A stretch of 64,000 nt of DNA, taken from the NCBI GenBank assembly GCA_045580125.1, contig JAZNNE010000022.1, positions 30-64,029 on the forward strand, given 5' to 3'. Shown one piece after another: positions 23,426 to 58,018 of this stretch. How positions within the stretch are numbered: the first letter of the stretch is position 1; each line of letters starts with the position of its first letter. The position numbers and the translations under genes are program-made. The DNA comes from Faecousia sp. (GTDB lineage: Bacteria; Bacillota; Clostridia; Oscillospirales; Oscillospiraceae). Under the pieces are notes generated by a model. The model made no database searches, had not been told where the DNA came from, and was given only the letters and a program-made list of their open reading frames with translations.

Positions 23426-25345
23426 ATGGACAGAGAGATCAAAAACATCATGCGCTGCAACCAGCAGCTGCTGGAAAGCTCGCCAAAAGATCTGAAATCG
23501 CTTTTCAATATCATATTCCGTTCGCCCGATTGCGTCTTGTGCGAAACCAACGACGGCTTTCGCATTCATACGCAAACCTACGGTCAGATCCATAGCCGGA
23601 TCTGTACCGCAGCAAATGCTCTGTATGCCAAGCTCGGCGCCACCCACAGCTACATCGCTCTGGAGATGGAAAACTCTCCGGACTGGATCGTAGCTTTTTG
23701 GGCTATTTTGATGAGCGGCAACAAGCCCTACCTGGTCAACACCCGCTATCCCGCGCACCTGAGCAACAGCATTCTCGGCACCCTGCAGGTGGAATACATT
23801 CTCTGCACCAAAGATACGCAGCTTTCCGGTCAGGCTATCCCTCTGTCCCAGCTGGCAGGAGATTTTCCCTGCGTCCCGGAGGATGTTTTTGAAAACGAAC
23901 TGGCTTTCTCCTCCTCTGCTACCTCTATGAAAGAGGTCATTTGCTTCTATACCGGTTTGCAAATTTCCGAGCAGGTCCTGAATTTCCCGCAAATCGTCAA
24001 AGAAAATCCCCAAATCGTCGCCCATTACAAGGGCAAGCTGAAGCAGCTGGCATTTCTGCCTTTTTACCACGTATTCGGTCTGTTTGCCGTATTTTTCTGG
24101 TTTACATCCCTTGGACGAACATTGGTTTTCCTGCCCGATTACAGTGCAGATTCCATTTTGAAAACCTGCCGACGTCATAAAGTTACCCATATCTTTGCAG
24201 TGCCCGCCCTTTGGCACACGGTTGAAAAGCAGCTTTCCTCCGAAGTCGCCAAGCTGGGCGACAAAAAACAGGCACAGCTGCAAAAATCCCTTGCATTTTT
24301 TACAACGCTTCAAAATCTTTTCCCCCGCTTGGGCGCTAAGTTGGCAAAGCGTTCCTTGCGGCAGATCACCGACAAGCTGTTCGGTCAGTCCGTTCTGTTT
24401 TGCATCAACGGTGGCAGCTATCTGCGGGACTCTGCGATGGCGCTGCTCAACGGCATCGGCTATAACCTGCACAACGGCTACGGTATGAGTGAAATCGGCA
24501 TAACCTCGGTGGAGCTGCGGCATCGTCCCAAGCACCGGAATCTGAATTCCATCGGTCACCCCTTCTCTGCGGTAGAATACCGCTTGGATGAAAACGGCAT
24601 TTTGCAGGTCAGAGGCGGAACCGTATGCACGAAAAAGCTGGTAAACGGCAGCAGCGTACAGCTGGACGACTGGTTCCACACCGGCGACCAGATGAAGTGC
24701 GTGGACGGTCATTACTACATTCTCGGTCGGCAAAGCGATGTCGTGATCGGTGAAAGCGGCGAGAACATCAATCCGGATATGATCGAAAAAGCATTTATTG
24801 TCCACGATGTTACGCAGCTATGTGTTCTGGGTCTGCCCGGTGAAAACGGTCAGGAGCTCTCGCTGGTGGCTCAAATCAGCCCCTACACCACCGGGAACCG
24901 CATTGAGCAGATCAAAAAGCGCATCTACCAAATCAACGAAACCTTCCCGCTTGCCATTGGCATCAAGCACTTCTATTTCACATACGACGAACTGGCATCT
25001 GCATCCGCCATCAAGGTCAGCAGAACGCAGTTGCTTCAAAAAATCGAGAATGCCCAGGTAAATCTGACTGCATTCCATCAATTCAAGCCCCGGGAAGCCC
25101 AGCAGGGCGAACAGTCCGCGCTGTTCCTGGCAGTTCGGAAGATTATCGCGCAGGTTTTGGTTGTCGACGAAGCGGATATTCTCGACGACACCCACATTTT
25201 CCACGATCTGGGCGCGACCAGCATCCAGTATTTTTCCATCCTTTCCGCATTGGCAGAGCAATTTTCCGTCTCCGCCTTTGACAGCAGCGATACCTATTGC
25301 TATACCCCCAGGGAAATCTGTGAATATTTAGAGAGAAAATTGTGA
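23426..25345 (+). CDS. AMP-binding (acyl-adenylate-forming) enzyme fused to a C-terminal carrier (ACP/T) domain
   Basis: FLPFYHVFG, NGYGMSE, WFHTGD, ILGRQSD..GENINP, IKVSR; C-terminal HDLGATS phosphopantetheine Ser motif. Confidence 0.88.
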   Translation: MDREIKNIMRCNQQLLESSPKDLKSLFNIIFRSPDCVLCETNDGFRIHTQTYGQIHSRICTAANALYAKLGATHSYIALEMENSPDWIVAFWAILMSGNKPYLVNTRYPAHLSNSILGTLQVEYILCTKDTQLSGQAIPLSQLAGDFPCVPEDVFENELAFSSSATSMKEVICFYTGLQISEQVLNFPQIVKENPQIVAHYKGKLKQLAFLPFYHVFGLFAVFFWFTSLGRTLVFLPDYSADSILKTCRRHKVTHIFAVPALWHTVEKQLSSEVAKLGDKKQAQLQKSLAFFTTLQNLFPRLGAKLAKRSLRQITDKLFGQSVLFCINGGSYLRDSAMALLNGIGYNLHNGYGMSEIGITSVELRHRPKHRNLNSIGHPFSAVEYRLDENGILQVRGGTVCTKKLVNGSSVQLDDWFHTGDQMKCVDGHYYILGRQSDVVIGESGENINPDMIEKAFIVHDVTQLCVLGLPGENGQELSLVAQISPYTTGNRIEQIKKRIYQINETFPLAIGIKHFYFTYDELASASAIKVSRTQLLQKIENAQVNLTAFHQFKPREAQQGEQSALFLAVRKIIAQVLVVDEADILDDTHIFHDLGATSIQYFSILSALAEQFSVSAFDSSDTYCYTPREICEYLERKL

Positions 25346-25346
25346 T

Positions 25347-25976
25347 ATGAACGAAAACATTTGGCTTGTCCGATTCTGCCTCGGCTTTGTAAAGCTTACC
25401 GGTCTTTTCCCGGCATGGCTGTATCTGAAGCCCCGGATCCGTCTTGCTTCCGGTGCAAAACGCCGGTTGCCCAAATCCTGCATTTTGGTCAGTAACCATA
25501 TCAGCCTGATGGATTTTGTGGTGTACCTGCTGGTATTTCCCTCCCGCACCATTCGGTTTTTGATCGCAGAGGTGCTGTATAACCGCGGCAAGCTCTTTGC
25601 GCGGTTTCTGAACCTGATCGGCGGCATTCGGGTGGATCGGGACGCCAAAAACTTCGACTTCGTTTCCCATTCCCTGACCGTGCTGGACAACGGTGGCGCC
25701 ATCGGCGTATTCCCCCAGGGTCGCCTGCCTGTCAAAGGACAGCATTTCCCCTTTACTGCCAGCACCGCATTTATCGCCCTGCGCACCGATGCGCCCATCA
25801 TTCCGGTATACACCGACGGCAATTACGGTCTTACCAAGCGTGCCGGCGTTGTTATCGGCGCCCCCCTCTATCTGCATGAGCATTGCTTGGACAACGTCAG
25901 CGAACAGGAACAGCTGACCCATCTGACAAAACTGCTGGAAGAGAAAGTTTACGCACTGAAAGAGGAACTGAACTGA
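25347..25976 (+). CDS. plsC: PlsC-type lysophospholipid acyltransferase
   Basis: SNHISLMD (HX4D), VFPQG, APIIPV. Confidence 0.85.
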   Translation: MNENIWLVRFCLGFVKLTGLFPAWLYLKPRIRLASGAKRRLPKSCILVSNHISLMDFVVYLLVFPSRTIRFLIAEVLYNRGKLFARFLNLIGGIRVDRDAKNFDFVSHSLTVLDNGGAIGVFPQGRLPVKGQHFPFTASTAFIALRTDAPIIPVYTDGNYGLTKRAGVVIGAPLYLHEHCLDNVSEQEQLTHLTKLLEEKVYALKEELN

Positions 25977-25978
25977 CT

Positions 25979-26617
25979 ATGGGCAAGACAAAGAAATTAT
26001 GCTTCCGCCACAATATGCCGGCTATGGATGCCGCGCGGCTTGTTTGTATGCCTTTGCTGCTGCTGTGGCGTATGAAGCGGCTGAATCCCGACGGCACAAA
26101 ATATACCGGCCGCATCCGCGGCGGTGCGATCGTTGCCGCCAATCACACCTCTTTTGCAGATCCCTTTCTTGTAGGTGTTGCCGTTTGGTACCGCCGGCTG
26201 TTTTTCCTTGCAGCCGAAGCAGTTATGGGAGGGAAACTGCGCACCTGGCTTCTTAAGGGCGTAGGCGCCATTAAGATCGACCGCAACTGCGCCGATATCG
26301 AAGCAATACGCAAATGCGTCAGCGTGCTGAAAAGCGGCTACCTGCTTTCCGTTTTTCCCCAAGGTGGCATCACCGGCGAGGATACGGTCTCGTCCATCAA
26401 ATCCGGCGCGATTCTGATGGCGCTGCAGGCGGGTGTTCCCATCGTACCGATGCACATCTGCCCTCCCAAGCACTGGTACAGCCGCCGGGTGGTCATTATC
26501 GGCAATACCGTCGATCCCAAAAATCATGTGGCAAACAAATTCCCCTCCACCAAGGACATCGAGAAGATCTCTCAGATCCTGATGGAGGAAATGAATCACT
26601 GTATGATATCTCAGTAA
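25979..26617 (+). CDS. plsC: PlsC-type lysophospholipid acyltransferase (second copy)
   Basis: ANHTSFAD, VFPQGG, IKSGAILMALQAGVPIVP; true start 25979. Confidence 0.85.
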   Translation: MGKTKKLCFRHNMPAMDAARLVCMPLLLLWRMKRLNPDGTKYTGRIRGGAIVAANHTSFADPFLVGVAVWYRRLFFLAAEAVMGGKLRTWLLKGVGAIKIDRNCADIEAIRKCVSVLKSGYLLSVFPQGGITGEDTVSSIKSGAILMALQAGVPIVPMHICPPKHWYSRRVVIIGNTVDPKNHVANKFPSTKDIEKISQILMEEMNHCMISQ

Positions 26618-26629
26618 GGAGCAAGCATT

Positions 26630-26872
26630 ATGCAAACACTGGAACGGTTGATCAAAGTCTTCAATGTTGTATTCGAAGACAGCATTGATATCAGCGCATT
26701 CAAGCCGGAAGCCTCTCTTCGTGAGGACCTTGGTATGAACTCCATCGGTCTTCTATATATGGCAATGGCCGTTGAAGAGGAATTCGGCATTAAGTTCAAT
26801 AACGACGATTTCGCTTCCATCTGCACTGTAGCAGATGTGGTTGCGTGCATCGAAAAGAAATGTCAGAGATAA
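26630..26872 (+). CDS. Stand-alone acyl carrier protein
   Basis: 80 aa, acidic, EDLGMNSIG motif, VEEEFGIKF, TVADV. Confidence 0.9.
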   Translation: MQTLERLIKVFNVVFEDSIDISAFKPEASLREDLGMNSIGLLYMAMAVEEEFGIKFNNDDFASICTVADVVACIEKKCQR

Positions 26873-27273
26873 GCTGGTCTGAAAAGACCCCTGTTTTCGG
26901 GGACATCGTCCGCACAAAGGTACAGTTTTATCATCACTACGGTATTTTTGTGTCTGAAAACGAGGTGATCCAGTTTGGTCTGCCGGACGATCCCTTTCGC
27001 CCCGCCTGCCAGATCCGTGTGATCAGCACAGACGTTATGACATTTCTGCAAGGCGGCGATCTGGAGGTCTTGACGCCCGATCGCAGCACCCGCAGTCAAA
27101 TGCGCAGTCCGGAGCAGATCGTATCCATCGCCCGCGGACGCCTTGGCGAAGACGGATATGATATTTTGCACAACAACTGCGAACACTTTGTAAATGACTG
27201 TGCCTTTGGAAAACCCCACTCCTCCTTTGTGCAGGACGTGCGGGAAAAACTGCGAAAAAAACTGGGAAAATAG
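26860..27273 (+). CDS. LRAT/PLAAT (permuted NlpC/P60) family acyltransferase or phospholipase
   Basis: N-terminal GDIV...YHHYGIF and C-terminal YDILHNNCEHF catalytic motifs. Confidence 0.85.
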   Translation: MSEISWSEKTPVFGDIVRTKVQFYHHYGIFVSENEVIQFGLPDDPFRPACQIRVISTDVMTFLQGGDLEVLTPDRSTRSQMRSPEQIVSIARGRLGEDGYDILHNNCEHFVNDCAFGKPHSSFVQDVREKLRKKLGK

Positions 27274-27284
27274 ACGTTTTCGTC

Positions 27285-27869
27285 TTATTCTCCCAGTATC
27301 TGTATGAAATAATCATCTACAACGCATAATTGCCGTTGTAGCGGCAGGATGTTGACTGCTTTCAAGTCGGTGATTCCGGTGCCGCATTTTTTGTAGTACG
27401 CCTCTTTGGCTGTCCAAATTTCAAAAAACCGCCGCAGGATGCTTTCATCGCAGCACAGCTGCTGCCAGGTTTCCTCCGCCCCTGCCGCCAGATATTCCAT
27501 CTCCTCCGGCACGCATACGTGCTTGCAAATGTTCAGTTTAATGGGTCGAATGCGCTCAATATCGATCCCCACCGGGGCATCGCTGATGGCGCACGCTACC
27601 ATTTGGTCGCAGTGGGATATGCTCACGTGCATTTCGCAGCCGGTGAGGTATGGCTGACCTTTGCTTGTGCAATGCAGCTTCGCAGAATCGGTATTCGCCT
27701 GCTTTTGCAGCAGTTCATAGACCAGACATTCCGCCGCCAAAGACCGTTTTCGGTCCTCTTCCCGGCGCAGGCGGTCGATACGCTCTTTTCTGGATGGCGA
27801 CAACTGCCGGTAAATGCATTGCAGCTGCGCCTCGGTATATTCTGTTATTTTACGGCAAGCCCAATGCAT
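27285..27869 (-). CDS. Sfp-type 4'-phosphopantetheinyl transferase
   Basis: KGQPYL, VSISH, VGIDIE, WTAKEAYYK..GTG. Confidence 0.93.
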   Translation of the reverse strand: MHWACRKITEYTEAQLQCIYRQLSPSRKERIDRLRREEDRKRSLAAECLVYELLQKQANTDSAKLHCTSKGQPYLTGCEMHVSISHCDQMVACAISDAPVGIDIERIRPIKLNICKHVCVPEEMEYLAAGAEETWQQLCCDESILRRFFEIWTAKEAYYKKCGTGITDLKAVNILPLQRQLCVVDDYFIQILGE

Positions 27870-27894
27870 TCTCTCACCCCAGTGCTAATTTTTG

Positions 27895-27955: not shown

Positions 27956-28582
27956 ATGTGGATTGTATATTCCCTACTTGCGCTCCTGGCGATCATCATT
28001 ACCGTCATATTGGTATTGCCGGTAAAGGTGATCATAAAGAATGATAAGGATGACATTCTCATCCTGCGTTACCGGCTGCTTTTTAAAACCTACGGCGAAG
28101 ATCCGGACCCCAACGACCCCATTCTCAAGGCTCTGAAAAAAGCCGGCGGTATCGATCGGTTGGAAAAAGCCGCTGTGCAGCAAAACATCCAAACGGACGG
28201 TCTGCAGGAAACGATTACGGAAAGCTATTCCCTTTTGATCGACCTTTTGAAAGAACTGCTTTTCCTTCTAAAAAATTGTACGGTAACAAAGCTGGATATT
28301 CACATTCTCAGCGCCGGCGATGATCCTGCCCAGGCAGCCATCAACTACGGCATTTACCAGGCCGCGACCCACACGCTTCTGTCTGTGCTGGGTCAGTTCC
28401 TGAAAATCCGTAAGCGGGCCCGTAAAATCGACATTCGCTGCGATTTTAATGAGCCGGCTCCGGTCTTCCGCTATCACGTCGTCCTGGCAGTGCCCTTCGC
28501 CCGAGTGTTAGCCGCCTTCTGGCGTGCCACTATGGCAGAAGTCAAGCGCACCGCCGAGGAAACGAAAAATCAGCAAAAATGA
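27956..28582 (+). CDS. Membrane-anchored conserved hypothetical protein (DUF2953-like)
   Basis: N-terminal TM helix; DDPAQAAINYG and IDIRCDF segments resemble DUF2953 proteins (from memory). Confidence 0.6.
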   Translation: MWIVYSLLALLAIIITVILVLPVKVIIKNDKDDILILRYRLLFKTYGEDPDPNDPILKALKKAGGIDRLEKAAVQQNIQTDGLQETITESYSLLIDLLKELLFLLKNCTVTKLDIHILSAGDDPAQAAINYGIYQAATHTLLSVLGQFLKIRKRARKIDIRCDFNEPAPVFRYHVVLAVPFARVLAAFWRATMAEVKRTAEETKNQQK

Positions 28583-29544
28583 TCCAGCACCTGCTGCACG
28601 TGGGCAGCAACGGTCTGCTCTTTATCGCATAATATGGCGTGAGTGGCGCCCGGCTGCACGATCCGGCGGCACATTTCGCATTTCTCTGCAAATTTCTGCT
28701 GCACCTGATTGCATACGGTTTTGTCGTTTTCTGCGCTGATCATCAAAATCGGCGTGCGGATCTTTTTCAAAAATCTTCTGCTGGTCAGCCTGCCGCGCAA
28801 GCTCACAGACTGCTGTACCCAGCGAATGGTTTGCGGTGTGGTGCAATAGCAGGGGTTCTGGTGCCGCCGTTCCATATTGAGTTGGAAACGGGCACGGCTT
28901 CTGTCGTGGGCGCGCTCAAACGGATAATTGGGATCATATTCACCGGCTGTCCAGCTTTTCTTTTTCCCTCTGCCTGCCAGTATGTGCAATGTCATTGCCC
29001 CATAGGCAATGGGTATCGGTATGCCGTTGGTCAACGGCTGGATCATAGGCGCGGACAGCACCGCCTTTTGGAACGTGTCCGTATGCTCTGCCAGATACTG
29101 AGCTGCCACCGCACCGCCCATAGAATGGGCATACAAATACAGCGGTCCATCGGTAACCGGTCGCACAACATCGCAAATAAACTTGTGCAGATCCTTCCGG
29201 TAATCGGAAAAACGATCCACGTGGATTAGATCAAGTCGCTCCGTAAGTCTGCAGGATCTGCCGTGGCAACGCTGGTCGTAGAGGAATACATCGTAGCCCT
29301 GATTCAGCAAATACCAGGCAAACTCGTGATATTTTTCCGTAAATTCGCTAAGTCCGTGCAGAATGACCACCGCGCCGCGGCTGTCTTCTGCCTGAAAATA
29401 TTCGTAATAGAGCGATGCTCCGTCAAACCCTTCAAAATTGCCCGTCTTCCGGCACTGCAGCAACTGCTGCGTGATGGCAGTCATCTGCTCCCGAAAAGTT
29501 TCCTCGGGCAGAACAGAAAACTGATAACTAGGTTTGATTTTCAC
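28570..29544 (-). CDS. Lysophospholipase L2-like alpha/beta-hydrolase
   Basis: VILHGLSEFTEKY, YDQRCHGRS, YAHSMGG nucleophile elbow, LSAPM, AENDKTV, GATHAI; GTG start 29544 with GAGGTG RBS. Confidence 0.88.
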   Translation of the reverse strand: MKIKPSYQFSVLPEETFREQMTAITQQLLQCRKTGNFEGFDGASLYYEYFQAEDSRGAVVILHGLSEFTEKYHEFAWYLLNQGYDVFLYDQRCHGRSCRLTERLDLIHVDRFSDYRKDLHKFICDVVRPVTDGPLYLYAHSMGGAVAAQYLAEHTDTFQKAVLSAPMIQPLTNGIPIPIAYGAMTLHILAGRGKKKSWTAGEYDPNYPFERAHDRSRARFQLNMERRHQNPCYCTTPQTIRWVQQSVSLRGRLTSRRFLKKIRTPILMISAENDKTVCNQVQQKFAEKCEMCRRIVQPGATHAILCDKEQTVAAHVQQVLDHFC

Positions 29545-29576
29545 AAAATCACCTCTGCTTATAATTTCCAGAAAAG

Positions 29577-30527
29577 TTGGTGATAATCTTGATATCTGCA
29601 AAGAAATCTCGCTTCAAAAGGATATCGGTTATCATTATTGCCATTATTTTCTCTTTTTGTGCCGTTTCTCTGGTGGCAACAAAATTTGTTTACGACAGCA
29701 TTTTTGCCCGCTACGATCAGCCCGCGGACATTCCCCAAGCGCTTAACGCCACTGTGGAGCAGCGGCAAACCTGCCAATTCTCCTCCGGGGAGAATCTGCT
29801 GGCGGGCTATTATTACCGCGCAGCTCAGCCCAACCAAACCAACGCCCTGGTGGTGCTGGTTCCCGGCTTCCACGCCGGCGGGGACGACTATTTGTGGCAG
29901 ATCCACGAACTGCTGGAATACGGCTGGAACGTTTTCACCTTTGATACCACCGGCACGCTTCAATCCCAGGGCGACAGCCAAATCGGCTTTTCCCAATCCC
30001 TGCTGGATCTGGAGGCTGCCTTGGAATATATTCGGAATAACCAAAAATTCGGTCATTCCCAGCTCGTCCTGATGGGACACAGCCGGGGCGCGTATGCCGC
30101 CTGCTGCGCTTTGTCCCGGGAGCAGGATATTGCCGCCGTTGTTTCTGTCAGCGGTGTCAACAGTGCTATGGAGGCCATTATGCAAATGAGCGTCCAGGCG
30201 GTCGGTCCTGTCAGCTACGGTAACTACGGCTTTCTTTGGCTCTATCAGGTCTCCCTGTTCGGCGCCGACACCCTGAATCAGGACGCAGCCCAAGCCATTT
30301 CCGACAGCGACGTGCCTGTGCTTATGATCCACGGCACCCGCGATACGCAAATCCCAATGGACGACAGCTCCATTATTTCCTACAAAGAGCAAATTACCTC
30401 CACCGAGGTAGAATATCTTCTGTGCGATGCCGGGCATACAGATCTGCTGTACGATGCCGACGGCACAGCCAGTGACACACTCATCGCCTACGTTCACGAT
30501 TTCCTGCTTCGCAGCTTAAATAAATAA
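29577..30527 (+). CDS. Membrane-anchored alpha/beta-hydrolase
   Basis: N-terminal TM, VLVPGF, GHSRG elbow, IHGTRD, AGHTD; exact start uncertain. Confidence 0.82.
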   Translation: MVIILISAKKSRFKRISVIIIAIIFSFCAVSLVATKFVYDSIFARYDQPADIPQALNATVEQRQTCQFSSGENLLAGYYYRAAQPNQTNALVVLVPGFHAGGDDYLWQIHELLEYGWNVFTFDTTGTLQSQGDSQIGFSQSLLDLEAALEYIRNNQKFGHSQLVLMGHSRGAYAACCALSREQDIAAVVSVSGVNSAMEAIMQMSVQAVGPVSYGNYGFLWLYQVSLFGADTLNQDAAQAISDSDVPVLMIHGTRDTQIPMDDSSIISYKEQITSTEVEYLLCDAGHTDLLYDADGTASDTLIAYVHDFLLRSLNK

Positions 30528-30550: not shown

Positions 30551-31573
30551 ATGAATGCTATTTTGATACCGGCGTATGAACCGGATGCACAGCTGATCGC
30601 ATTGGCGAAGCAGCTGAAAGAGACAGGCTTCCTTGTGGTCATCGTCGACGACGGCAGCGGTCCTTCCTATCAGGATATTTTCGATGCGGCACGAGAATAT
30701 TCCCATATCCTTACCCACGGCAGAAACCGCGGCAAGGGCGCAGCTCTGAAAACCGGTATGCGCTATATCCGGGACCATCTGCCCCAGGTGGAAAATTTCA
30801 TCACCTGCGACGCCGACGGACAGCACCGTGTAGAGGATGTCCTGCGCGTTGAAAATCAATTAAATGCCGGTCATAAGTTCGTGCTGACGATGCGGCAGCT
30901 GCATAAGGATATTCCTTTGCGCTCCCAGGTGGGCAATTCCATGTCCCGGGTCGTTTATGCGCTGCTGACTAAGCGGTACCTGTCGGACAATCAGTCCGGT
31001 CTTCGCGGCTTCCACCGCTCTCATATCAACTGGATGATAAAGGTGGAAAAGGACAACTACGACTATGAAATGAACGTCCTCTACTATGCCGCCAAGAAGA
31101 GCATCCGCATTTGCACCCTCTCCATTGAAGCTATCTACATCAACAACAATCAGTCTTCGCATTTTCATCCGGTCAAGGATACCCTGCGGATCTACAAAAG
31201 CCTTTTCAAGCTGGCCAGCGGCTTATTTGTTGGATTTTTTGTGGCTGAGCTGTGCATCATTCTCACTTCGATTTTCCTTGGCTATGACCACCTGCTCATT
31301 TCCATTCCCAGTGTCGCACTGATTTCCTATCTTGTCAACATCGGTTTCAGTAAGTATTTTATGTTCCGCAATACCCACTGCCACGATTACCTGACCCTTT
31401 TGATCCACCAGATCATATCTTACATACTCTACACGCTGGGCTGCATCGTATTTTATTACGCCTGTCCCCAGATCCCGCTGTGGCTCAGCTTCAATATCGT
31501 ATTTATGATATGCCTTCCCCTGCGGTATTGGCTGCATAAATTCACCTTTATCGCCCTGCGGACCCACGAATAA
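30551..31573 (+). CDS. GT2 (polyprenyl-phosphate glycosyltransferase-like) fused to a GtrA-like membrane domain
   Basis: ILIPAYEP, VDDGSG, NRGKGAALKTG, CDADGQH, DNQSGLRGF, YEMNVL; four C-terminal TM helices. Confidence 0.85.
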   Translation: MNAILIPAYEPDAQLIALAKQLKETGFLVVIVDDGSGPSYQDIFDAAREYSHILTHGRNRGKGAALKTGMRYIRDHLPQVENFITCDADGQHRVEDVLRVENQLNAGHKFVLTMRQLHKDIPLRSQVGNSMSRVVYALLTKRYLSDNQSGLRGFHRSHINWMIKVEKDNYDYEMNVLYYAAKKSIRICTLSIEAIYINNNQSSHFHPVKDTLRIYKSLFKLASGLFVGFFVAELCIILTSIFLGYDHLLISIPSVALISYLVNIGFSKYFMFRNTHCHDYLTLLIHQIISYILYTLGCIVFYYACPQIPLWLSFNIVFMICLPLRYWLHKFTFIALRTHE

Positions 31574-31601
31574 GCTGCCGCTGGGAAAATTCCATAAAAT
31601 G

Positions 31602-31640
31602 CAAATCGTCAAAACAATGTTTTGACGATTTGTTTTTTAT
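31602..31640. terminator. Bidirectional terminator
   Basis: CAAATCGTCAAAACA-a-TGTTTTGACGATTTG plus a T tract, between convergent genes. Confidence 0.82.
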
Positions 31641-36091: not shown

Positions 36092-36145
36092 TGAACTCAG
36101 CCCTTTCTTGTTTGTGTTCACAATGTGTTCATAAGCATCTGTGTA

Positions 36146-36174
36146 ATAATACCACACTCTCCCTTTCTTTTCAA
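36146..36174 (-). promoter_or_regulatory. sigmaA promoter of the fakB-fakB-fakA-plsX operon
   Basis: TTGAAA-17 bp-TATTAT with TGG extension. Confidence 0.72.
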
Positions 36175-36279
36175 CATCTTTTTCATTTTTTCGACGTTTT
36201 GCGACAAAAAACAGATGCATTTTTCCAAAAGCTGTGATATAATGTTTTATCGATATATTAATGTTTTTGGGAGGCACTT

Positions 36280-38107: not shown

Positions 38108-38120
38108 AGGAGGTATACCG

Positions 38121-44286: not shown

Positions 44287-44454
44287 TGTGCAAACCCCCT
44301 TGTTTAGATTATTGTTTGCCGGCTTTGTGCCGGTAACATCTGCTTGCCCATTCAGTTTAGCACAGTTTTTTGGATTTTTCAACAGCTCGGTTTGCGGTAT
44401 CCGACGGGCACTACGCCTGGTGAAGCTACTTCGCATTCATCTAACCGTTATTGC

Positions 44455-47252: not shown

Positions 47253-47343
47253 CTGTACTGACGGCATAATCTAACAATGGTCTTTAATAGTTGGAGGAAC
47301 GACTACTGTTGATTTGTGCCTGCTGCGGTGTCCGATGCGCGCC

Positions 47344-47372
47344 TTGACTTTTCTGCAGGTTCGCTATATTAT
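47344..47372 (+). promoter_or_regulatory. sigmaA promoter (rightward)
   Basis: TTGACT-17 bp-TATTAT. Confidence 0.68.
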
Positions 47373-47402
47373 ATTACCATCACACAGTTGGAGGTAATAT
47401 GG

Positions 47403-51500: not shown

Positions 51501-54500
51501 GGACATAGTTATAGGTGATCTTATTGTTGCCAACATCGTCGTTGTTAGTTTCGGCACTCCAGCCCCAGCCAAGGCTAATGCCGGTATAGGGGGTGTAGGA
51601 AACTTCGTTGTGGTCGATCAGCACGCCATTGGTGTATCCGGCAAAGATACCGACAGAGTCGTACATATCGATACCGATACGGGTTACGAAATTGTTCTGA
51701 ACGGTGGCGTTCTTAACCAGCTGCCAATCTCTGAAGCCTGCCTGGGCAACGATCTCGCCGATCACGATGCCGTTGTAGGAGATGTCGCAGACCAGGGAGT
51801 TGATAATCTTACAGCCATCGGAAATGACGACGCCGTCACTCTTGATGCGGATGCCGGCAGTGCCCATATTGCGGATCTGGCAGCCGTCAAAGACCACATT
51901 CACGCAGCCGGACAGCTCGATGCCGCCGGGCACCTGGGTCCAGGTGTTGTTGAGCAGGTAGCAGTTTGCCTGCTCATCCACATACTGATTCTCGCTGGGG
52001 AAGGTGAAGGTGGTGTGGGAGAAGGTAATACCCTCAAAGGTGATGTTGCTGGCATATTCCATATCGATGACGTGCTCTGTCACGGGCAGGTAAGCTTCCA
52101 CGTCCTCCATAGTGTCCTGCGCCATATAGTAGATCTTACCCTCGTGGCGGTCAATGTACCATTCGCCGGGGGTGTCGATAAACATATAGTCGTTGGACAG
52201 CCAGGTGGGCATGAGAGGCGTTCCCGACAGCGATGCCATACCGTCATCCACATAAAGCTCCGTGCCGTCCATAGATGCGCCGACGATGTGCTGAATTCTG
52301 TGATACCACAGATACAGGCTGTGCATCTCCACATGCTCGGGGTTCTTCAGGTAGGAGAAGTTGTATTTTTCATCAGAAGAAACGCTGAGACCGGCGTTGT
52401 ACATAGACTCAATAAAGCCGTCAACCGCGCGGTTGGGATTGAAATCGGAGGAGTAGCTGCTGGTAGCGGCAGCACCCTTGGCATCGTAAGTGATCGTGCC
52501 GCTGGCGGTTTCGCCCTGGGTAACGATATCTGTTGCGATGGGGTTGTTGGGATCGTGGATGTTCAGCAGCGTCAGCTCGCTGATGTGCAGATAAGTAACA
52601 GTGGAGCTTCTCCATTCACTCTTGGGGATATTGCTCATAGGTGTCAGCAGAGTGGCGACCAGACGCACCTTGTAAACCTCCACGTCCGAGAAAGTAAAGG
52701 TCTTGACGTTTTTGATCGTCCAATCCTGCTCTGCGCCTTCTGCAACGGTGGTCCAGTTATCCCGTTCGGCAGAAGTGGTAACCTGGATCTTGTAATCGTA
52801 AGGTGCGCAGAAGCCGTCGTCCCGGACAGCCAGCTCGATGGTGTTGATCAAAGAGGGCTTGCCGTTCTCGGTGGCATCCAGTACAAGGGCGGGAATATTG
52901 GGACCGTAAGGCGGCATCCACTGATACTGCTGGCCGTAGGTTGCGCCATAGTTTTCGTAGTTGCCGTCAAACATCTTGGCGCCGGTACCGTCATTGTATT
53001 CAACCAGGGTAACCAGATCGGCACCGCGGTAGTAGCCGAATTCGATAATATCATCGGCGGTCAGGTCTACCTTGTCGTGCACAACGGTGTCGGACTCGAT
53101 GGTCTCGTCCACCTCATAGGTAACCTTATCAACGGTATACAGCGTAAATTCGTTCAGGCAGAAGTCGGTGGTGAAGCCGGCAGGATTTGCGCTGATGTCC
53201 GCTTCGGGATAGGTGCCGTCCTCCTCGGTCAGGTTGTAGACCAGAATACGGGCAGCGGTAATAACGACCTCGTCAAACTTATAACGCTGGGCATAGTGGG
53301 CATCGGGCTGAGTCTTGTCTACCCACTGGGGATCGTCCTCGGAAGCGACGGTCTTCCATACACCGCCGGTGAGGACCTGAATCTCATAGTTCAGAGGTGC
53401 GGACCAAATGTCGGGGTCGATGGCCACCTCAATGGCGCCGATCTGTGTAGCAGTACCCAGCTGAAGCAGGAAGGCAGGAACCTTGCTGCCGCCCCACTGC
53501 ACCAGTTCGTTGTAGGTGAACTGACCGGTGTAGCCGTAGGAGCGCAGGCCGTCGATGATGCATTCCGCTTCGCCGGAAGCTTTTTCATAATCAACGAAGC
53601 TGCCATTGACGTTGGTATAGTAACCCAGACGGGGGGTCAGACTGCTTGCAGGCAGGGCGGTGTAGATGTTCTTAACGGCATAGCTGGGAGCATCCTCCTC
53701 AGCCAGAATGCCGGTAACGGTAGAAGGAACGATATCCAGCTCGTCCAGCTGCAGGCTGTATTCGCCGTCGCCACGCAGCATCAGGGGCTGGAGCTTAACG
53801 TACTGCGCCTTATAGCCCTTGGGCAGCACCAGAAGCTGTGCGCCGCCGGTAGGTGTCTGGATGTCAGGCAGCTCCATCAGGGTGTGATAGTTCACACCGT
53901 CGGTGGAAACCTGAACACGGGCCGCCTTCATATAGCCGGCAGTGACACCGTCGACGTAGGTGGGATACAGACGAATTGCGCCCACATCCTGAACAGAGCC
54001 CAGATCCACAATGAATTCTCCCTTGTAGACGGGAGAGGACTGGACGCCGCTGTTAAAGCCGTCGGCAAAGCCGTTATCCATCAAATAGTTTTCACCGGAG
54101 CCGTTAACGGTTATGGTACCGCTGAGTTCGGCAGGAGCATGCACCTTCAGCTGGCTGACGGTAACGGCAGCACCGCTGGTGATGCGAAGCTGGGTGGCGG
54201 CAACAGGATTGATGGCAAAGGTGTTGCTACTCTTCCAGGTATAGTCGGTCTTGCTGTAGACAGTGTTCCAGACAGTGCCGTCGGCAGAGGCCTCGATCTG
54301 AATATCGCCCACAGTATCAACCGCGGCGGCATCGGCAGTCATAACCACAGCACCAACCGCGACAGCGCTGCTGCCCACATTGACCGTATAGGCGTTACCC
54401 TTGGTCAGATTGATGTTGGCGGCGGTTGTCATGGTGCTGTCCAGATCCACGTGCTGCACAACGCCCAGATTGACAGCCTTGGTGGTGTTGGTAAAGCCAA

Positions 54501-55368
54501 CCTGCACCTCCGCAAATGCCAGGGAATACTTCCCATTTGCAGGGTTGCCCAACTTGGTTGCTTCGATCTTGATGTAGCGGGCGTCGGTAGTGGAGAAGTA
54601 GAATTCCACACCGCCCATAGCCGCGGGCGCGACAAAGCCGGTTTCGGCTGCCTGGGTTGCCCAGGTGCTGCCGTCGGAGGAGGTCTGAATGGTAAAGTTC
54701 TCCGGGAAGCCCAATGCCTTGCCCGTAGCGGAAGAGGTATCGGTATAGCCGTACAGCATAACGTTGGAGATCAGCTTGGCTTCGCCCAGATCAACAATCA
54801 GATACTGGGTGGTATTGGCAGAGGAAAACTCAGCAGATTGGAAGCCGTAGGAGGAGAAGGTCTCCAGATCCGTGGGCGTCAGCTCCATAGCAGCCACGGG
54901 TTGGGGCTCGCCATTGACATAGAACTGGCGGGTCAGCTCTGCGCCCTTGGGGATGTCCGCAACATAAATATTGTGCGCGGCATCGTGCAGCGTCCAGCTG
55001 TCCAGCTGTACACCGCCGGAGATCAGGGCAGTCTCACCGGATGCGGCCCGGTATGTAATGGTGTGTCCATTCTGACCGGACTCAGCCTCGCCAAATGTGA
55101 TGGACTGGGTCGCGTCGTATGTGCCACCCTTCAGGATGACGACCACATCGCCGTCGGCACTCAATGCGGCAGCCTTTTTCTTGGCAGCCTGGAGGGTCTT
55201 GAGTGCAGTTTGCTCTGTGGTGCCGTCATTGGAATCGCTGCCGTTGACGGGGTCGATCCACAGATCAGCGTCTGCTTCCGTTGCGCTTGCGATGGTGATC
55301 GCCGGCATAACCGACAGCACCATACACAGCACCAAAAGAAGAGAAAGGATTCTGGTGAGCTTTTTCAT
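48523..55368 (-). CDS. 2281-aa secreted right-handed beta-helix protein (GH141-like) with F5/8 (discoidin/CBM32-like) inserts, DUF5018-like, InlB-B-like and four FN3-like repeats
   Basis: Signal peptide; DPVNGSDSNDG, TITYRAASGE..ISGG, RQFYVNG, PGEWYID, IDHNEVSYTPYTGISLGWGW, DGGAIYT, IYLDEG; repeated IVDLG...IQ.S.DG..W modules. Confidence 0.85.
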   Translation of the reverse strand: MKKLTRILSLLLVLCMVLSVMPAITIASATEADADLWIDPVNGSDSNDGTTEQTALKTLQAAKKKAAALSADGDVVVILKGGTYDATQSITFGEAESGQNGHTITYRAASGETALISGGVQLDSWTLHDAAHNIYVADIPKGAELTRQFYVNGEPQPVAAMELTPTDLETFSSYGFQSAEFSSANTTQYLIVDLGEAKLISNVMLYGYTDTSSATGKALGFPENFTIQTSSDGSTWATQAAETGFVAPAAMGGVEFYFSTTDARYIKIEATKLGNPANGKYSLAFAEVQVGFTNTTKAVNLGVVQHVDLDSTMTTAANINLTKGNAYTVNVGSSAVAVGAVVMTADAAAVDTVGDIQIEASADGTVWNTVYSKTDYTWKSSNTFAINPVAATQLRITSGAAVTVSQLKVHAPAELSGTITVNGSGENYLMDNGFADGFNSGVQSSPVYKGEFIVDLGSVQDVGAIRLYPTYVDGVTAGYMKAARVQVSTDGVNYHTLMELPDIQTPTGGAQLLVLPKGYKAQYVKLQPLMLRGDGEYSLQLDELDIVPSTVTGILAEEDAPSYAVKNIYTALPASSLTPRLGYYTNVNGSFVDYEKASGEAECIIDGLRSYGYTGQFTYNELVQWGGSKVPAFLLQLGTATQIGAIEVAIDPDIWSAPLNYEIQVLTGGVWKTVASEDDPQWVDKTQPDAHYAQRYKFDEVVITAARILVYNLTEEDGTYPEADISANPAGFTTDFCLNEFTLYTVDKVTYEVDETIESDTVVHDKVDLTADDIIEFGYYRGADLVTLVEYNDGTGAKMFDGNYENYGATYGQQYQWMPPYGPNIPALVLDATENGKPSLINTIELAVRDDGFCAPYDYKIQVTTSAERDNWTTVAEGAEQDWTIKNVKTFTFSDVEVYKVRLVATLLTPMSNIPKSEWRSSTVTYLHISELTLLNIHDPNNPIATDIVTQGETASGTITYDAKGAAATSSYSSDFNPNRAVDGFIESMYNAGLSVSSDEKYNFSYLKNPEHVEMHSLYLWYHRIQHIVGASMDGTELYVDDGMASLSGTPLMPTWLSNDYMFIDTPGEWYIDRHEGKIYYMAQDTMEDVEAYLPVTEHVIDMEYASNITFEGITFSHTTFTFPSENQYVDEQANCYLLNNTWTQVPGGIELSGCVNVVFDGCQIRNMGTAGIRIKSDGVVISDGCKIINSLVCDISYNGIVIGEIVAQAGFRDWQLVKNATVQNNFVTRIGIDMYDSVGIFAGYTNGVLIDHNEVSYTPYTGISLGWGWSAETNNDDVGNNKITYNYVHDVCKTNYDGGAIYTLAEQSDSEIAYNYIHDSGTLASKTENAIYLDEGTAYLDIHHNVIDTEAQSWLQIWFETIHNNKTHDNYHNSSLSTRGYYVNVSNSTKNNIAFDSLSSNAAALSIANNAGLTDESVKRGEDKGFWLRHNFSQDYWTNSDCARYNTEERGWYDVNISGQIGRTYYDDINRVATIVVPEGTDLSSMSLRYTAEGGWTVTPNNGTAQNFTEPVAYTLTSDGTEKEWLVRVIVGEDTQGIPLPPSDPIPTPVPTNPPATEPVVDPMEKIDLSGCVVGTCSAYDASVSYANQSWWSSAYPDWRDLENFVDGDHLNDISYTVSPGERADFYVDLTRGYGGAVAVDQLKLYYGGVGNYAMTSITIVLELADGTQVTQTFSPNWGVYATPLEWTFEQTYNVKGIYVWADSVTAGSSVTFGEFELYRDTSVEEPVYTVTFRNWDGSVISSTTYHYGDTVTVPGDPTKASDGSYTYTFAGWDKTVVDCVGDAEYTAVFTAEHYHTYDDDCDTSCNTCGADRPVTHSYTTTTTKATLTKDGKIVKACSDCGDVESTTVIARPATFTLSTVNYTYNGVVKTPGVTVKDANGKTLVKGTDYTVTYPSGRINPGSYNVTITMKGNYSGTKTLTFKINLAVPTVKASNAVDGVKITWNAIAGATSYKVYKSVYTSSGWSSWTAIKTGYTGTSYVDTTVKSGHNVRYTVRAFNGSNSSTFKASNSIKFLATPTVKASNAVDGVKLTWNAVGSAKSYIVYKSTYSGGKWSSWTRLKTGVTGTTYTDTTVKSADNVRYTVKAINGNFTSYIKASNSIKFLATPTVKATNAAGGASITWNKITGAKSYIVYKSVYSGGKWGGWTRVATGVTGTSYTDTSVKSGANVRYTVKAINGNFTGYIKASNSIKFLATPTVTVARTTTGIKASWNAVGSAKGYIVYRRAYVNGKWTGWEAVKTTTATSFTDTTAKTGVFYQYTVRAYNGNFKSWYINSASIKR
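48526..49590 (-). repeat. Four tandem FN3-like coding repeats, 267-bp period
   Basis: CCAGGAACTTGATGGAGTT recurs at 48786, 49053 and 49320; 89-aa units LATPTV...ASNSIKF. Confidence 0.9.
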
Positions 55369-55520: not shown

Positions 55521-55540
55521 TTGGTGTCAAAATTGGTGTC
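55521..55540. repeat. Direct repeat TTGGTGTC x2 (12-bp period), possible integrase arm-type site
   Basis: gcgTTGGTGTCaaaaTTGGTGTCcaa; homologous to 58616-58635. Confidence 0.45.
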
Positions 55541-55722
55541 CAACCGATTTGATTCGTTTCTGTTCGTCCTGAAAAGTCAGAAAAACAACCGGCTCGGATA
55601 TCATTCCTTAAATAAAAAATAATATCAAGAAAAAGTCGAAAATGCTTTCCTTTGTCGAAAAAGTGTGGTATAATAATTTAATACTGCGAAAAACATATTA
55701 GCTTACAGGAGTGTAATGGAAT

Positions 55723-57081
55723 ATGACGGATAAACCTTGCTACAATTTAAGTCCCACGCAAGACGTGGTATATATGCAAAGCCAGTACAGTTTATATAAA
55801 AGAGTGATCAACATCCTTTCCTCCATCGCCATTGATGAGGAAGTGGATTTCCAGCTTATGAATCAGGCTTTCAAGCTTCTGGTTGAACGAAATGACTGCC
55901 TCAGAATCAGATTCTTCAAAAAGAGAGGAAAGCTGATGCAGTACTTTGGCGATTCCGGAAATAAGATCAAGAATGTGCCTGTTTTGTCCTTTGAAACCAA
56001 GCAGCAGCAAGACGCCTTTATCGATAAGGTTAGAAAAAAAGCCATTGACTATATGCACGGCGTTGTCATCGAGCCTTATTTTATTCACACCTATGACAAT
56101 CGTTATATGGTGTTTATCAAGATCTGCCATTTGGTTAGTGACCTTTATGGAATCAACGTTTTGTATACGGATCTTTTAAACGTGTATCATGCGCTGAAGA
56201 AGGGCGAGCCGTTGCCCCCTGCCCCGGCAAGTTTCGAGGAGATTATTAAAAAGGATATTGAAAAGAACGCCAACAGCAATGTGACGGAGAAACATCTGGA
56301 GTACTTCACCGATCTGCTCACCAATAATCCCGAGCCGTTCTATGCCGGTATTCACGGCCCCAACAATCCCATTTGGCAGAAGCAGCTCAAAAAACACCAA
56401 CGGGGCATGCCCATTTTCCTTGTCCGTAACAGTACGCAGACCTACCGCCACAAGATCGACAAGGATCTGGTAGAGAAGGTGCTAAGCTATTGTCAGAACA
56501 ATGTATGCTCACCTGCGAATTTGTTTTTCTGCGCAAGCTCCGTAGCCCTGGCTAAGCTAAACGGAAACCTCAAGAACATAATGCCCATCGGTCTTTATCA
56601 TTGCCGCCATACCGCACAGGAAAAGCACTGTGCAGGTCCCAAGGTGCAAAGTGCTGCTTGTTATACCAAGATCGATTATGCCCTTTCCTTTGAGGATAAT
56701 CTGAAGGCATACTCAGCTGCGCAGTACGGTCTTTACAAACATATCAAGTTTAAAGACAGAGATTTTGAGGCCTTAGTGCACAACATCTACCGCTCTTCAC
56801 CTCTTACGATGTACTATTCGTTTTCCTACTCGCTCTTACCCGTTGATATGCCCGATGGCGTGGAGTTTAATGTGTATACCAACGGTAATGGCGCGCTTCC
56901 TGCCTATGTCGTTCAGGTTTTGAATGCCAAGACCAAAGAAGTTGAGATGGCTTACGATGTACAGACCAGGATCACCAGTGAAGATGATGTCAGCAAATTC
57001 CATACCTACTATCTGAATGTACTGAAGCAGGTGCTGGACGATCCCGGCATCAAAGTTGCGGATATTCAGCTTTCGCTGTAA
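55723..57081 (+). CDS. Stand-alone NRPS-type condensation domain protein
   Basis: YNLSPTQ, LVERNDCLRIRF, ICHLVSDLYG (HHxxxDG variant); no A or T domain in this ORF. Confidence 0.82.
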   Translation: MTDKPCYNLSPTQDVVYMQSQYSLYKRVINILSSIAIDEEVDFQLMNQAFKLLVERNDCLRIRFFKKRGKLMQYFGDSGNKIKNVPVLSFETKQQQDAFIDKVRKKAIDYMHGVVIEPYFIHTYDNRYMVFIKICHLVSDLYGINVLYTDLLNVYHALKKGEPLPPAPASFEEIIKKDIEKNANSNVTEKHLEYFTDLLTNNPEPFYAGIHGPNNPIWQKQLKKHQRGMPIFLVRNSTQTYRHKIDKDLVEKVLSYCQNNVCSPANLFFCASSVALAKLNGNLKNIMPIGLYHCRHTAQEKHCAGPKVQSAACYTKIDYALSFEDNLKAYSAAQYGLYKHIKFKDRDFEALVHNIYRSSPLTMYYSFSYSLLPVDMPDGVEFNVYTNGNGALPAYVVQVLNAKTKEVEMAYDVQTRITSEDDVSKFHTYYLNVLKQVLDDPGIKVADIQLSL

Positions 57082-57112
57082 TGACATATTTTCAAAAAGC
57101 GTTCTATATATG

Positions 57113-57147
57113 CAGCACCCCAAAAGCGTTTCGCTTTTGGGGTGCTG
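57113..57147. terminator. Bidirectional terminator hairpin
   Basis: CAGCACCCCAAAAGC-gtttc-GCTTTTGGGGTGCTG between convergent genes. Confidence 0.78.
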
Positions 57148-57166
57148 TTCATTTTATCATGTGGGT

Positions 57167-58018
57167 TTATAAAATCTTTCTTCTGGTTAATTTTTGCGTT
57201 ATTTTATTAAAGTTGGTAATAATCACGTCGCCGGTTAAGCGCAGACGGCTATCTTTATTATTTTTGTTAATGACCTCTATATTGCGGTAAATTTGTTCCA
57301 GATCATCATAGCCATCGCCAAAATACTCTTTTAAGATGTTTTTCGTTCTTTCATAACCGACTTCCAACATATTATCAATGCTGTCCTGTTGGAACACAAA
57401 TGATTGTCTTAACGAAGTTTCGTCCGGGAAGGTTATTTTAATAATTTTGTTGTCAAACTCTGTGCTTTCAAATTTATAGCAAATATCATCAAAATATATA
57501 CAGATGATATAATCTATCTCACGATCTAAAAGCGGAAAAACGGGAATGTTGTCGACCACAGCTCCATCAAAATATCCCGAGCCGTCAACCTGAACGGAAC
57601 GGTTGCAAACAGGTAACGCAACCGCTGCTTTTAAGTATAGCGGTATTTTATCTTTGTCCACCTTGGATAAATCTTTATATGCGATATTTTTGGCGCTTAA
57701 CTCAAGCAAAGAACAGTAAAATTCAGAAGATATTGAATCGTTGGGATCATACAGATTGATGATATCTTGTTGCAAAATATCGCTTCTAAGGAATCGGGTC
57801 AAGCCCATCTTCTTGCCATTGCTGCAAATCTCACTCCACATTTGCTTTGCCCGCTCAAGCTTGTTTGTCATATAGGCATAACCATTGAGCGTGCCTACGG
57901 AAGCGCAAGATACATATTTAATTTCTTCAGACGGTATAATTTCGCTTAATGCATATAAAGCGCCAAGCTGAAGTGCGCCTTTAGCCATTCCTCCGGCCAA
58001 TACAAGTCCTATATTCAT
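57167..58018 (-). CDS. Patatin-like phospholipase
   Basis: LAGGMAKGA glycine loop, CASVG nucleophile elbow, YFDGAVVDNIP (DGA/G motif). Confidence 0.88.
   Translation of the reverse strand: MNIGLVLAGGMAKGALQLGALYALSEIIPSEEIKYVSCASVGTLNGYAYMTNKLERAKQMWSEICSNGKKMGLTRFLRSDILQQDIINLYDPNDSISSEFYCSLLELSAKNIAYKDLSKVDKDKIPLYLKAAVALPVCNRSVQVDGSGYFDGAVVDNIPVFPLLDREIDYIICIYFDDICYKFESTEFDNKIIKITFPDETSLRQSFVFQQDSIDNMLEVGYERTKNILKEYFGDGYDDLEQIYRNIEVINKNNKDSRLRLTGDVIITNFNKITQKLTRRKIL

Follow-up and report, generated by a model that had tools for sequence, protein, structure and literature searches.

We analyzed a 64,000-nucleotide stretch of a Faecousia sp. genome (contig JAZNNE010000022.1 of assembly GCA_045580125.1; hereafter the window), which covers almost the whole of contig C22 in a metagenome-assembled genome (MAG; 1.54 Mb, 94% complete) whose contigs are labeled C1, C20, C26, and so on. 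About 35 kb of it, rich in lipid genes, had been read in the original prediction as one integrated system for stripping host or dietary lipids and rebuilding membrane lipids. This interval is not one system, but three separate things: a conserved island, unrelated genes, and a mobile cassette. The explanation we favor, with somewhat better than even confidence, is that the island (window 22.6–38.1 kb, perhaps to 39.9 kb; 15–17 kb) encodes a second pathway with carriers of its own, which would activate outside fatty acids and attach them to lipids, the unrelated genes and the cassette merely lying beside it. From gene content, synteny, paralogy, phyletic patterns, and domain fusions, all directly observed, we infer each chemical step of this pathway. 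The island may thereby constitute a new variant assembled from known kinds of enzyme, working much like a split Aas/LplT system combined with Fak/PlsX.

Genes were called from a list of open reading frames (ORFs) combined with a codon-usage score trained on the source genome, and named by Pfam and NCBIfam (Table 1). Every gene class of the original prediction was detected by these databases at or near its coordinates, and its gene list was borne out: a ligase fused to an acyl carrier protein (FAAL~ACP), a free acyl carrier protein (ACP), a 4′-phosphopantetheinyl transferase (PPTase), three PlsC-type acyltransferases, an LRAT enzyme, four hydrolases, a patatin, FakA, two FakB, PlsX, and a condensation domain. 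Catalytic motifs were intact in the three acyltransferases (all with HX4D and FP(Q/E)G motifs), the LRAT-like enzyme, the hydrolases, and the patatin. As had also been claimed, the window holds no fab gene. Further genes in the interval encode a Zn-ribbon membrane protein, a DUF2953-like protein, two GT2 glycosyltransferases, a CE4 deacetylase, and an ABC exporter, as well as an ECF sigma factor/serpin pair, two low-GC ORFs without family match, and a 2281-aa surface protein.

Conservation of gene order separates the island from the rest of the interval. FAAL~ACP had 457 relatives among species genomes, and all window proteins were compared by tblastn with 80 species-level loci found by FAAL~ACP alignment; the lower per-locus counts in Table 1 are limited by 10-kb flanks and contig ends. 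Clustering exceeded chance only for 22.6–38.1 (39.9) kb. Cluster conservation, as originally predicted, was thus upheld for the left half, syntenic in dozens of species, and failed for the right half, which is unlinked to it: the serpin/ECF pair, the family-less ORFs, the second glycosyltransferase (GT2b), and the giant surface protein never occurred in the 80 loci, and the condensation domain and patatin are mobile (7/50 island genomes). The island gene set was kept through inversions and permutations (L055, L097–L100, L103, L106, L110, and L112; L158–L161) and recurs in gut Oscillospirales MAGs, including Faecousia, Acutalibacteraceae, and others. Only one other sampled genome of the same genus (G017) carries the island, and there it is collinear. 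On the explanation we favor, the island is a vertically inherited accessory island of gut Oscillospirales that lack type II fatty acid synthesis (FASII).

Paralogy and tree data show that the island carries its own kinase, binding proteins, transacylase, two carriers, and PPTase. The genes fakB2-fakB1-fakA-plsX form an operon (36277–31637, minus strand), and all score above Pfam cut-offs. PlsX′ is 32% identical to a housekeeping PlsX on C43 and FakA′ approximately 36% identical to a housekeeping FakA on C26 (35%–37% to housekeeping FakAs generally); the C26 gene adjoins an Asp23-like gene, the usual context of housekeeping FakA. Elsewhere, the genome encodes further DegV proteins, PlsC-like proteins (C1 and C20), a canonical ACP (C85), and PlsY (C39). 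ACP′ is thus a second ACP besides that on C85, scores below it against the ACP model, and occurs only in islands. All island-less relatives have a single FakA, approximately 35% identical to FakA′, the second copy being confined among these relatives to the source genome and G017. At least two FakA genes were found in 49 of 52 island genomes, even where the locus is a lone five-gene ligase operon (L074, L075, L092, L094, and L101). In a quick maximum-likelihood tree, 53 island FakA sequences formed one clade (SH-aLRT 98) on a long branch from 18 housekeeping sequences. We accordingly rejected the window FakA and PlsX as housekeeping genes, given the paralogs on C26 and C43, the single FakA of island-less relatives, and the separate clade.

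The ligase–carrier operon begins with FAAL~ACP, whose ligase domain is a very divergent ANL enzyme (best PDB matches only E 1e-12, with local alignments only). Its A3 P-loop is degenerate, reading LAFSSSATSMKEV (window 23900–23940, residues 159–171; including SSSATSMKE) where (T/S)SG(T/S)TGxPKG is expected. The A5 (GYGMSE), A7 (TGD), and A8 (GRQSD...GENINP) motifs, the A10 Lys, and the carrier Ser (in GATS) are kept, and the domain is probably a divergent, still adenylating enzyme. The best NCBIfam match of AT1 is NF006386, the Aas-type acyl-[ACP]–phospholipid O-acyltransferase domain, with a score below the full-length model's cut-off. AT2 is nearer the AGPAT/PlsC type and likely starts at the ATG at 25979 (212 aa, compared with 215–217 aa in relatives); a minus-strand ORF at 25997–26635 proposed by the codon-usage gene call was rejected, Pfam identifying the plus-strand AT2 as the real gene. 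Outside the window, a divergent PlsC-like and AMP-ligase gene pair was observed at C20:16804–19517.

Directly after ACP′, in every locus that has it, lies the gene for a PLAAT/LRAT-like Cys-His enzyme. It aligns across the catalytic domain of human PLAAT3 (4DOT) with both catalytic residues kept; a transmembrane (TM) scan found no hydrophobic segment or C-terminal membrane anchor, and the enzyme is predicted to be soluble. A full HMMER scan of 1.84 billion representatives recovered 2091 homologs. Among the best 150, 99 are 270–380 aa long, and in at least 74 of them the C-terminal domain is a homolog of the Sfp-type PPTase encoded in the window. Of six fusion-length proteins tested (333–378 aa), five were confirmed by Pfam as LRAT plus ACPS. 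These fusions, together with the invariant ACP–LRAT gene order, tie the enzyme to a carrier protein. In the window, the PPTase, a two-lobed member of the ACPS superfamily (PF01648 + PF22624), is encoded by a separate gene, convergent with the FAAL operon and 11 bp downstream of the LRAT-like gene. Possible roles for the LRAT-like enzyme are those of an acyl-ACP:acceptor transferase, a proofreading thioesterase, or a phospholipid-to-ACP transacylase.

Four architectures of the island were distinguished. Variant I, the window type, has PlsX′, no second ligase, and no adjacent transporter. Variant II is minimal (FakB-FakA-MFS_2-FAAL~ACP-AT1-ABH3), variant III reads FAAL~ACP-AT1-AT2-ligase2-ACP-LRAT-(PPTase)-FakB-MFS_2-FakA-ABH3, and variant IV, in G028, reads FAAL~ACP-MFS_2-AT1-AT2-ligase2-radical SAM activase-glycyl radical enzyme-ACP-LRAT. 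FAAL~ACP and AT1 were always together in the variants seen, and an MFS_2 transporter often accompanies them, giving the Aas/LplT triad in a split arrangement. A second set that travels together comprises AT2, the free ACP, and LRAT. Every variant seen that has a free ACP also has PlsX′ or a second ligase, and those lacking a free ACP have neither. This pattern suggests that PlsX′ loads ACP′ from FakA′/FakB′ acyl-phosphate in the window type, and it fits the earlier proposal of two loading routes for two carriers. The P-loop of relatives in variants II–IV is more canonical (SSGTTGTMK, STSGTTLSKK, and MSSGTSESVK). The source genome has an unlinked MFS_2 ortholog (C59:36586–38022), 50% identical to the G028 operon transporter and with a TetR-like gene beside it (C59:36586–38618). 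As a separate observation, the radical SAM activase and glycyl radical enzyme of variant IV lie between the second ligase and the ACP–LRAT pair (L027:2167–5177, G028:C11).

We propose that the island route would run parallel to the housekeeping routes, in which FakA/FakB feed PlsY and PlsX feeds ACP and then PlsC. The membrane-anchored hydrolases ABH2 and ABH3, with the PldB-like ABH1, would free fatty acids and lysolipids from outside lipids. FakB1′/FakB2′ and FakA′ would convert the fatty acids to acyl-phosphate, and PlsX′ would pass the acyl group onto the private ACP′, while the divergent ligase may charge the ACP fused to it with a further acyl chain. Both carriers would be primed by the Sfp-type PPTase. 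AT1, paired with FAAL~ACP, and AT2, paired with ACP′, would then acylate lipids, the likeliest acceptors being lysophospholipids or other glycerolipids, by analogy with Aas/LplT of E. coli. The soluble PLAAT/LRAT-like enzyme would act on ACP′, with either acyl-ACP transferase or proofreading thioesterase activity.

The closest parallels to this scheme are Aas/LplT of E. coli and the fused MFS-LPLAT-acyl-ACP-synthetase proteins (NF006386/PRK08633 and NF005959/PRK08043), in which an ANL ligase with bound ACP hands acyl groups to a PlsC-family acyltransferase, as is proposed for the island; the best family match of AT1 is the Aas acyltransferase domain, and variants II–IV have an MFS transporter in the operon. 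However, the ligase and acyltransferase of the island are separate genes (23426–25345 and 25347–25976), whereas Aas is one polypeptide, and it is the ligase, not the acyltransferase, that carries the fused ACP in the island. The island further differs in having two acyltransferases, a second, free ACP, an LRAT-like enzyme, its own PPTase, and a degenerate ligase P-loop; its associated transporter is of the MFS_2 type and not adjacent in the window, and its host is a Gram-positive-lineage bacterium without FASII. With the FakA/FakB-PlsX-PlsY-PlsC pathway of Firmicutes (S. aureus, S. pneumoniae, and E. faecalis), the island shares an intact three-domain FakA, two FakB, and PlsX. In E. faecalis, a second ACP, AcpB, is tied to the use of outside fatty acids (PMC6509188), and the island similarly appears to pair a second ACP with such use. 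Unlike in those bacteria, the island holds these genes as an additional, paralogous set within a single operon, which forms its own clade and is co-inherited with the ligase~ACP/LPLAT/LRAT operon. The LRAT-like enzyme resembles mammalian PLAAT/HRASLS and LRAT proteins in its PF04970 domain, with the His and the NCEHF Cys, but lacks the C-terminal anchor of mammalian PLAAT, is encoded directly after an ACP, and is PPTase-fused in most close homologs; gene order and fusion point to a carrier-protein-linked substrate rather than only phospholipid. Within the literature collection searched, no paper on an LRAT/ACP/LPLAT operon or on FASII loss in Oscillospiraceae was found.

The host itself is, within the limits of a MAG, well supported as a fatty acid auxotroph, since FASII genes are absent here and the ketoacyl-synthase domain is missing from most genus relatives (15/18) and most island-bearing genomes (47/50). 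Searching the source genome with the proteins of a complete fabK-fabD-fabG-fabF-accB-fabZ-accC-accD-accA cluster from a same-genus genome (G007) recovered no FabF, FabK, FabD, FabZ, AccA, or AccD homolog, only generic SDR, biotinyl, and ATP-grasp matches. The source genome has no ketoacyl-synthase domain either, and the domain is patchy across the order. The auxotrophy assumed in the original prediction was therefore upheld, but not the view of the region as the auxotroph's basic membrane-building route: housekeeping FakA, PlsX, ACP, and PlsY are encoded elsewhere, and the island is missing from 23 of the 24 genus relatives sampled, most of them being FASII-less too. The nearest named FAAL~ACP relatives come from MAGs of ruminant, other animal, and human guts, labeled Faecousia, Oscillospiraceae, Acutalibacteraceae, Ruminococcus, Avispirillum, Congzhengia, and, in one case, Lachnospiraceae.

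Several points weigh against a second acylation pathway of this kind. The window-type island has no adjacent LplT-type transporter, and the conservation of the glycosyltransferase GT2a and the deacetylase in it is left unexplained by salvage. Private carriers and a PPTase would insulate the island from bulk phospholipid synthesis, and a specialized product fits this at least as well as re-acylation does. The ligase's chemistry is uncertain because the canonical ATP-binding P-loop is missing. The association statistics take no account of shared ancestry, and gene absences are subject to the usual caveat for MAGs, which all the genomes are.

The cassette at the right end raises a further reading, compatible with the preferred one as an add-on, which we entertain only tentatively: a dispersed A–T–C pathway in which FAAL~ACP or the free ACP would supply the distant condensation domain for the synthesis of fatty acid amides, with the patatin and ABH4 providing fatty acids. 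OaaC, a condensation domain that stands on its own and produces oleoyl aminovaleric acid in Coprococcus eutactus (PMC13310621), is by a large margin the best solved relative of the window's domain (12KH, E 6.5e-31; next match 2.8e-07). The two share a stand-alone architecture of about 450 aa and, in their genomes, a fatty acid ligase and ACPs. Nonetheless, identity to OaaC is only about 25%–28%. The motif CHLVSDL, compared with DHRLMDS in OaaC, keeps the catalytic His and Asp, with different first and last positions, and so departs from the (D/H)HxxxD(S/A) pattern of fatty-acid-amide condensation domains, in which His and Asp are conserved (PMC13310621). The A, T, and C genes lie next to one another in described clusters (PMC13310621), as they do in one found here on G028:C10, whereas the nearest ligase and ACP lie 29–32 kb from the window's condensation domain, and the cassettes of other genomes have none either. 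Housekeeping acyl-ACP could serve equally well as donor, and condensation-fold enzymes can form esters too.

The distribution of the cassette (window 55597–58095) bears on this possibility in both directions. DNA identity is 84%–91% over 2.4 kb including the patatin. The condensation domain occurs in 7 of 50 island genomes at 81%–88% protein identity, compared with 50%–68% for FAAL~ACP of the same genomes, and the patatin beside it is 81%–92% identical in four loci (L123, L124, L125, and L052). Since cassette identity is far above that of island genes, the condensation domain and patatin form a horizontally moving add-on, and the condensation domain was rejected as a member of the conserved island. 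One locus (L052) has the cassette 4 kb upstream of FAAL~ACP; in most other genomes, the two are on different contigs. Among 400 sampled genomes of the order, the cassette was found in four, from three other families (f8, f17, and f19; four families overall), of which three carry the island against a base rate of 26/400 (3/26 versus 1/374; Fisher p about 0.001, uncorrected for phylogeny); the fourth, G421, lacks FAAL~ACP. Beyond the patatin, tRNA-like fragments, a 163-nt direct repeat (84% identical), and perfect 43-nt inverted arms (58194–58491 and 59320–59482), with a TnpV gene close by, look like scars of mobile-element integration; ARAGORN found no intact tRNA. Having no ligase or carrier of its own, the cassette's condensation domain probably draws on acyl-ACP of the host cell, possibly from the island carriers. 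The N-acyl signaling lipids of the original prediction are possible through this orphan OaaC-like domain, for this genome only.

A reading that we regard as unlikely takes the island as an assembly line for a specialized, non-bulk lipid, such as an O-/N-acylated aminosugar lipid. A lipid-linked HexNAc from GT2a would lose its acetyl group to the CE4 enzyme, receive acyl chains of the two private carriers through AT1, AT2, and the LRAT-like enzyme, and leave the cell by the ABC exporter. PLAAT-type enzymes include N-acyltransferases, private ACPs and a PPTase exist alongside an intact housekeeping pathway, GT2a and the deacetylase stay with the window-type island through rearrangements, and the deacetylase gene overlaps the ABC exporter gene in the window. 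On the other hand, GT2a, the deacetylase, ABH1, and ABH2 look like lineage-specific additions because they are absent from variants II–IV, which keep FAAL~ACP, AT1, ABH3, and Fak. AT1 and AT2 are nearest to glycerolipid LPLATs, MFS_2 in other variants points to lysolipid uptake, and the ABC exporter is linked only in close relatives.

It is improbable that the island is instead a glycerolipid or acylated aminosugar-lipid line free of both coenzyme A and FASII, in which the LRAT enzyme would shuttle acyl chains between phospholipid and the private ACP without ATP and the P-loop-less ligase domain, having given up adenylation, would load its fused carrier from FakA′/FakB′ acyl-phosphate. Here the relation between P-loop loss and Fak linkage is ambiguous: the loss is confined to the window-type variant with PlsX′, yet variant II is Fak-linked and keeps STSGTTLSKK.

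That the whole 35 kb is one system and the auxotroph's main means of rebuilding membrane lipids from host or dietary lipids is very improbable: FASII is absent and many lipid genes lie within 35 kb, but paralogy and synteny largely refute it, the island copies being paralogs of a housekeeping Fak/PlsX/ACP/PlsY set in a genus of mostly FASII-less, island-less genomes and the right half not being syntenic with the left, its condensation domain and patatin mobile and sporadic. Barely credible is an inherited block of unrelated lipid genes without joint function, which the several transcription units on both strands and the lack of any shared regulator found would allow, but which is at odds with the same gene set after repeated rearrangement across several families, with a FakA duplication that tracks the ligase operon even when unlinked (G071, G072, G081, G082, and G086, with at least two FakA each), with the complementary distribution of PlsX′ and the second ligase, and with the commonness of LRAT–PPTase fusions.

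The remaining island genes surround these operons. The Zn-ribbon gene is usually beside the FAAL operon and is followed by a terminator-like hairpin at 23374–23402. An AlphaFold model of the DUF2953-like protein (pLDDT 72) gave no Foldseek match in the PDB with TM above 0.23. ABH1 scores 148 bits against NCBIfam PRK10749, below the cut-off. A bidirectional terminator-like hairpin follows GT2a at 31601–31633. FakB2′ probably starts at M63, at 36091, with a promoter-like site at 36174–36146. ABH3 is found in all architectural variants, and the Cys of its GxCxG motif in 25 of 25 orthologs, down to 40% identity; the CE4 deacetylase stays linked to ABH3 in rearranged islands. The ABC exporter is probably co-transcribed here with the overlapping deacetylase gene, its linkage to the island is seen only in the closest relatives, and in G017 and L041 it lies on the island's other side.

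Between island and cassette, the ECF sigma factor gene is translationally coupled to that of a membrane protein with a full serpin domain, a pair absent from the G017 contig as it is from the 80 loci. AT3 is an accessory gene enriched in island-bearing genomes (11/50 island genomes; only G017 among 40 relatives; 0/38 island-less relatives), and ABH4 adjoins the condensation-domain/patatin cassette in two genomes at 78%–83% identity. The 735-aa and 178-aa ORFs have a GC of 0.41–0.44 and a weak codon-usage score, and were probably acquired recently. GT2b has six paralogous matches in window 1–22134. This segment itself consists of GT4, GT2, and Acyl_transf_3 genes in a row and probably serves surface polysaccharide synthesis. 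The 2281-aa protein, with paralogs on C75, C21, C79, C64, C84, and C36, probably binds or degrades glycans at the surface. GC is 0.51–0.53 in the island, compared with 0.525 for the genome, and 0.33–0.44 at 44–48 kb and from 56 kb onward; Rfam found no RNA family and a tRNA gene search no tRNA in the window.

Table 1. Features of the window, with their occurrence in the 80 related loci
Feature	Position	Strand	Loci (of 80)	Basis and remarks
Zn-ribbon membrane protein, Pro-rich linker, three C-terminal TM segments	22605–23354	+	41	Pfam Zn_Ribbon_1, TM scan
FAAL~ACP, divergent acyl-AMP-ligase-like (ANL) domain with own carrier domain	23426–25345	+	80	Pfam AMP-binding + PP-binding
AT1, PlsC/LPLAT acyltransferase (NHISLMD, FPQGR)	25347–25976	+	77	Pfam PF01553, NCBIfam
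AT2, second PlsC/LPLAT acyltransferase (NHTSFAD, FPQGG)	25979–26617	+	74	Pfam PF01553
ACP′, free acyl carrier protein	26630–26872	+	73	Pfam PP-binding, NCBIfam ACP
PLAAT/LRAT-like Cys-His enzyme (HHYGIF, NCEHF)	26845–27273	+	68	Pfam LRAT PF04970, E 3.6e-19, 69.7 bits (cut-off 24.3)
Sfp-type PPTase	27285–27869	−	41	Pfam ACPS PF01648 + AASDHPPT_N PF22624, NCBIfam HetI/AusB-like
DUF2953-like protein, N-terminal TM segment	27950–28582	+	41	Weak Pfam match; conserved in window-type island
ABH1, cytosolic alpha/beta-hydrolase, lysophospholipase L2 (PldB)-like (AHSMG)	28570–29601	−	49	Pfam Hydrolase_4
ABH2, TM-anchored alpha/beta-hydrolase (GHSRG)	29577–30527	+	51	Pfam, TM scan
GT2a, GT2 glycosyltransferase, four C-terminal TM segments	30551–31573	+	52	Polyprenyl-phosphate-sugar synthase type (PpgS/AglJ/ArnC-like)
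PlsX′, acyl-phosphate:ACP transacylase paralog	31637–32614	−	52	Pfam FA_synthesis
FakA′, fatty acid kinase subunit A paralog	32620–34257	−	52	Pfam Dak2 + FakA_M + FakA_C
FakB1′, DegV fatty-acid-binding subunit	34250–35137	−	50	Pfam DegV
FakB2′, DegV	35150–36277	−	22	Pfam DegV; count limited by flank length
ABH3, TM-anchored alpha/beta-hydrolase, Cys nucleophile (GICIG)	36280–37236	+	13	Pfam, motif
CE4 polysaccharide deacetylase + DUF3473, cytosolic, XrtA-type-deacetylase-like	37241–38107	+	10	Pfam/NCBIfam
ABC exporter, ATPase	38100–39038	+		Pfam/NCBIfam
ABC exporter, ABC-2 permease	39035–39859	+		Pfam/NCBIfam
ECF sigma factor + membrane serpin	39917–42024	−	0	Pfam
AT3, third PlsC/LPLAT acyltransferase (NHVMFMD, FPEGS)	42197–43021	−		Pfam, motif
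ABH4, alpha/beta-hydrolase (GHSWG)	43192–44436	−		Pfam, motif
735-aa + 178-aa ORFs, co-oriented, each with N-terminal TM segment	44455–47180		0	No family match
GT2b glycosyltransferase	47316–48407	+	0	
2281-aa surface protein, four F5/8 type C domains + beta-helix/GH141-like region	48523–55368	−	0	
Stand-alone condensation domain (CHLVSDL), ~450 aa	55723–57081	+		Pfam Condensation; PDB 12KH
Patatin-like phospholipase (GGMAKG, CASVG, DGA)	57167–58018	−		Pfam; convergent with condensation domain
TnpV	59595–60026			

Faecousia, Acutalibacteraceae, and their relatives are abundant hindgut bacteria, almost all of them uncultured. Many appear to lack fatty acid synthesis, and a subset would carry, in the island, a duplicated, carrier-protein-based pathway for acyl activation and transfer. 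Such a pathway bears on how host and dietary lipids may be converted to bacterial membranes, on what these bacteria would need in culture, and on their expected indifference to FASII inhibitors. The island also provides a defined genomic setting for a bacterial PLAAT/LRAT homolog, beside an ACP and often fused to a PPTase, and FAAL~ACP serves as a natural experiment in P-loop degeneration among ANL enzymes. The mobile cassette, finally, suggests that fatty acid amide synthesis can be spread by a single orphan gene relying on the carriers of its recipient.

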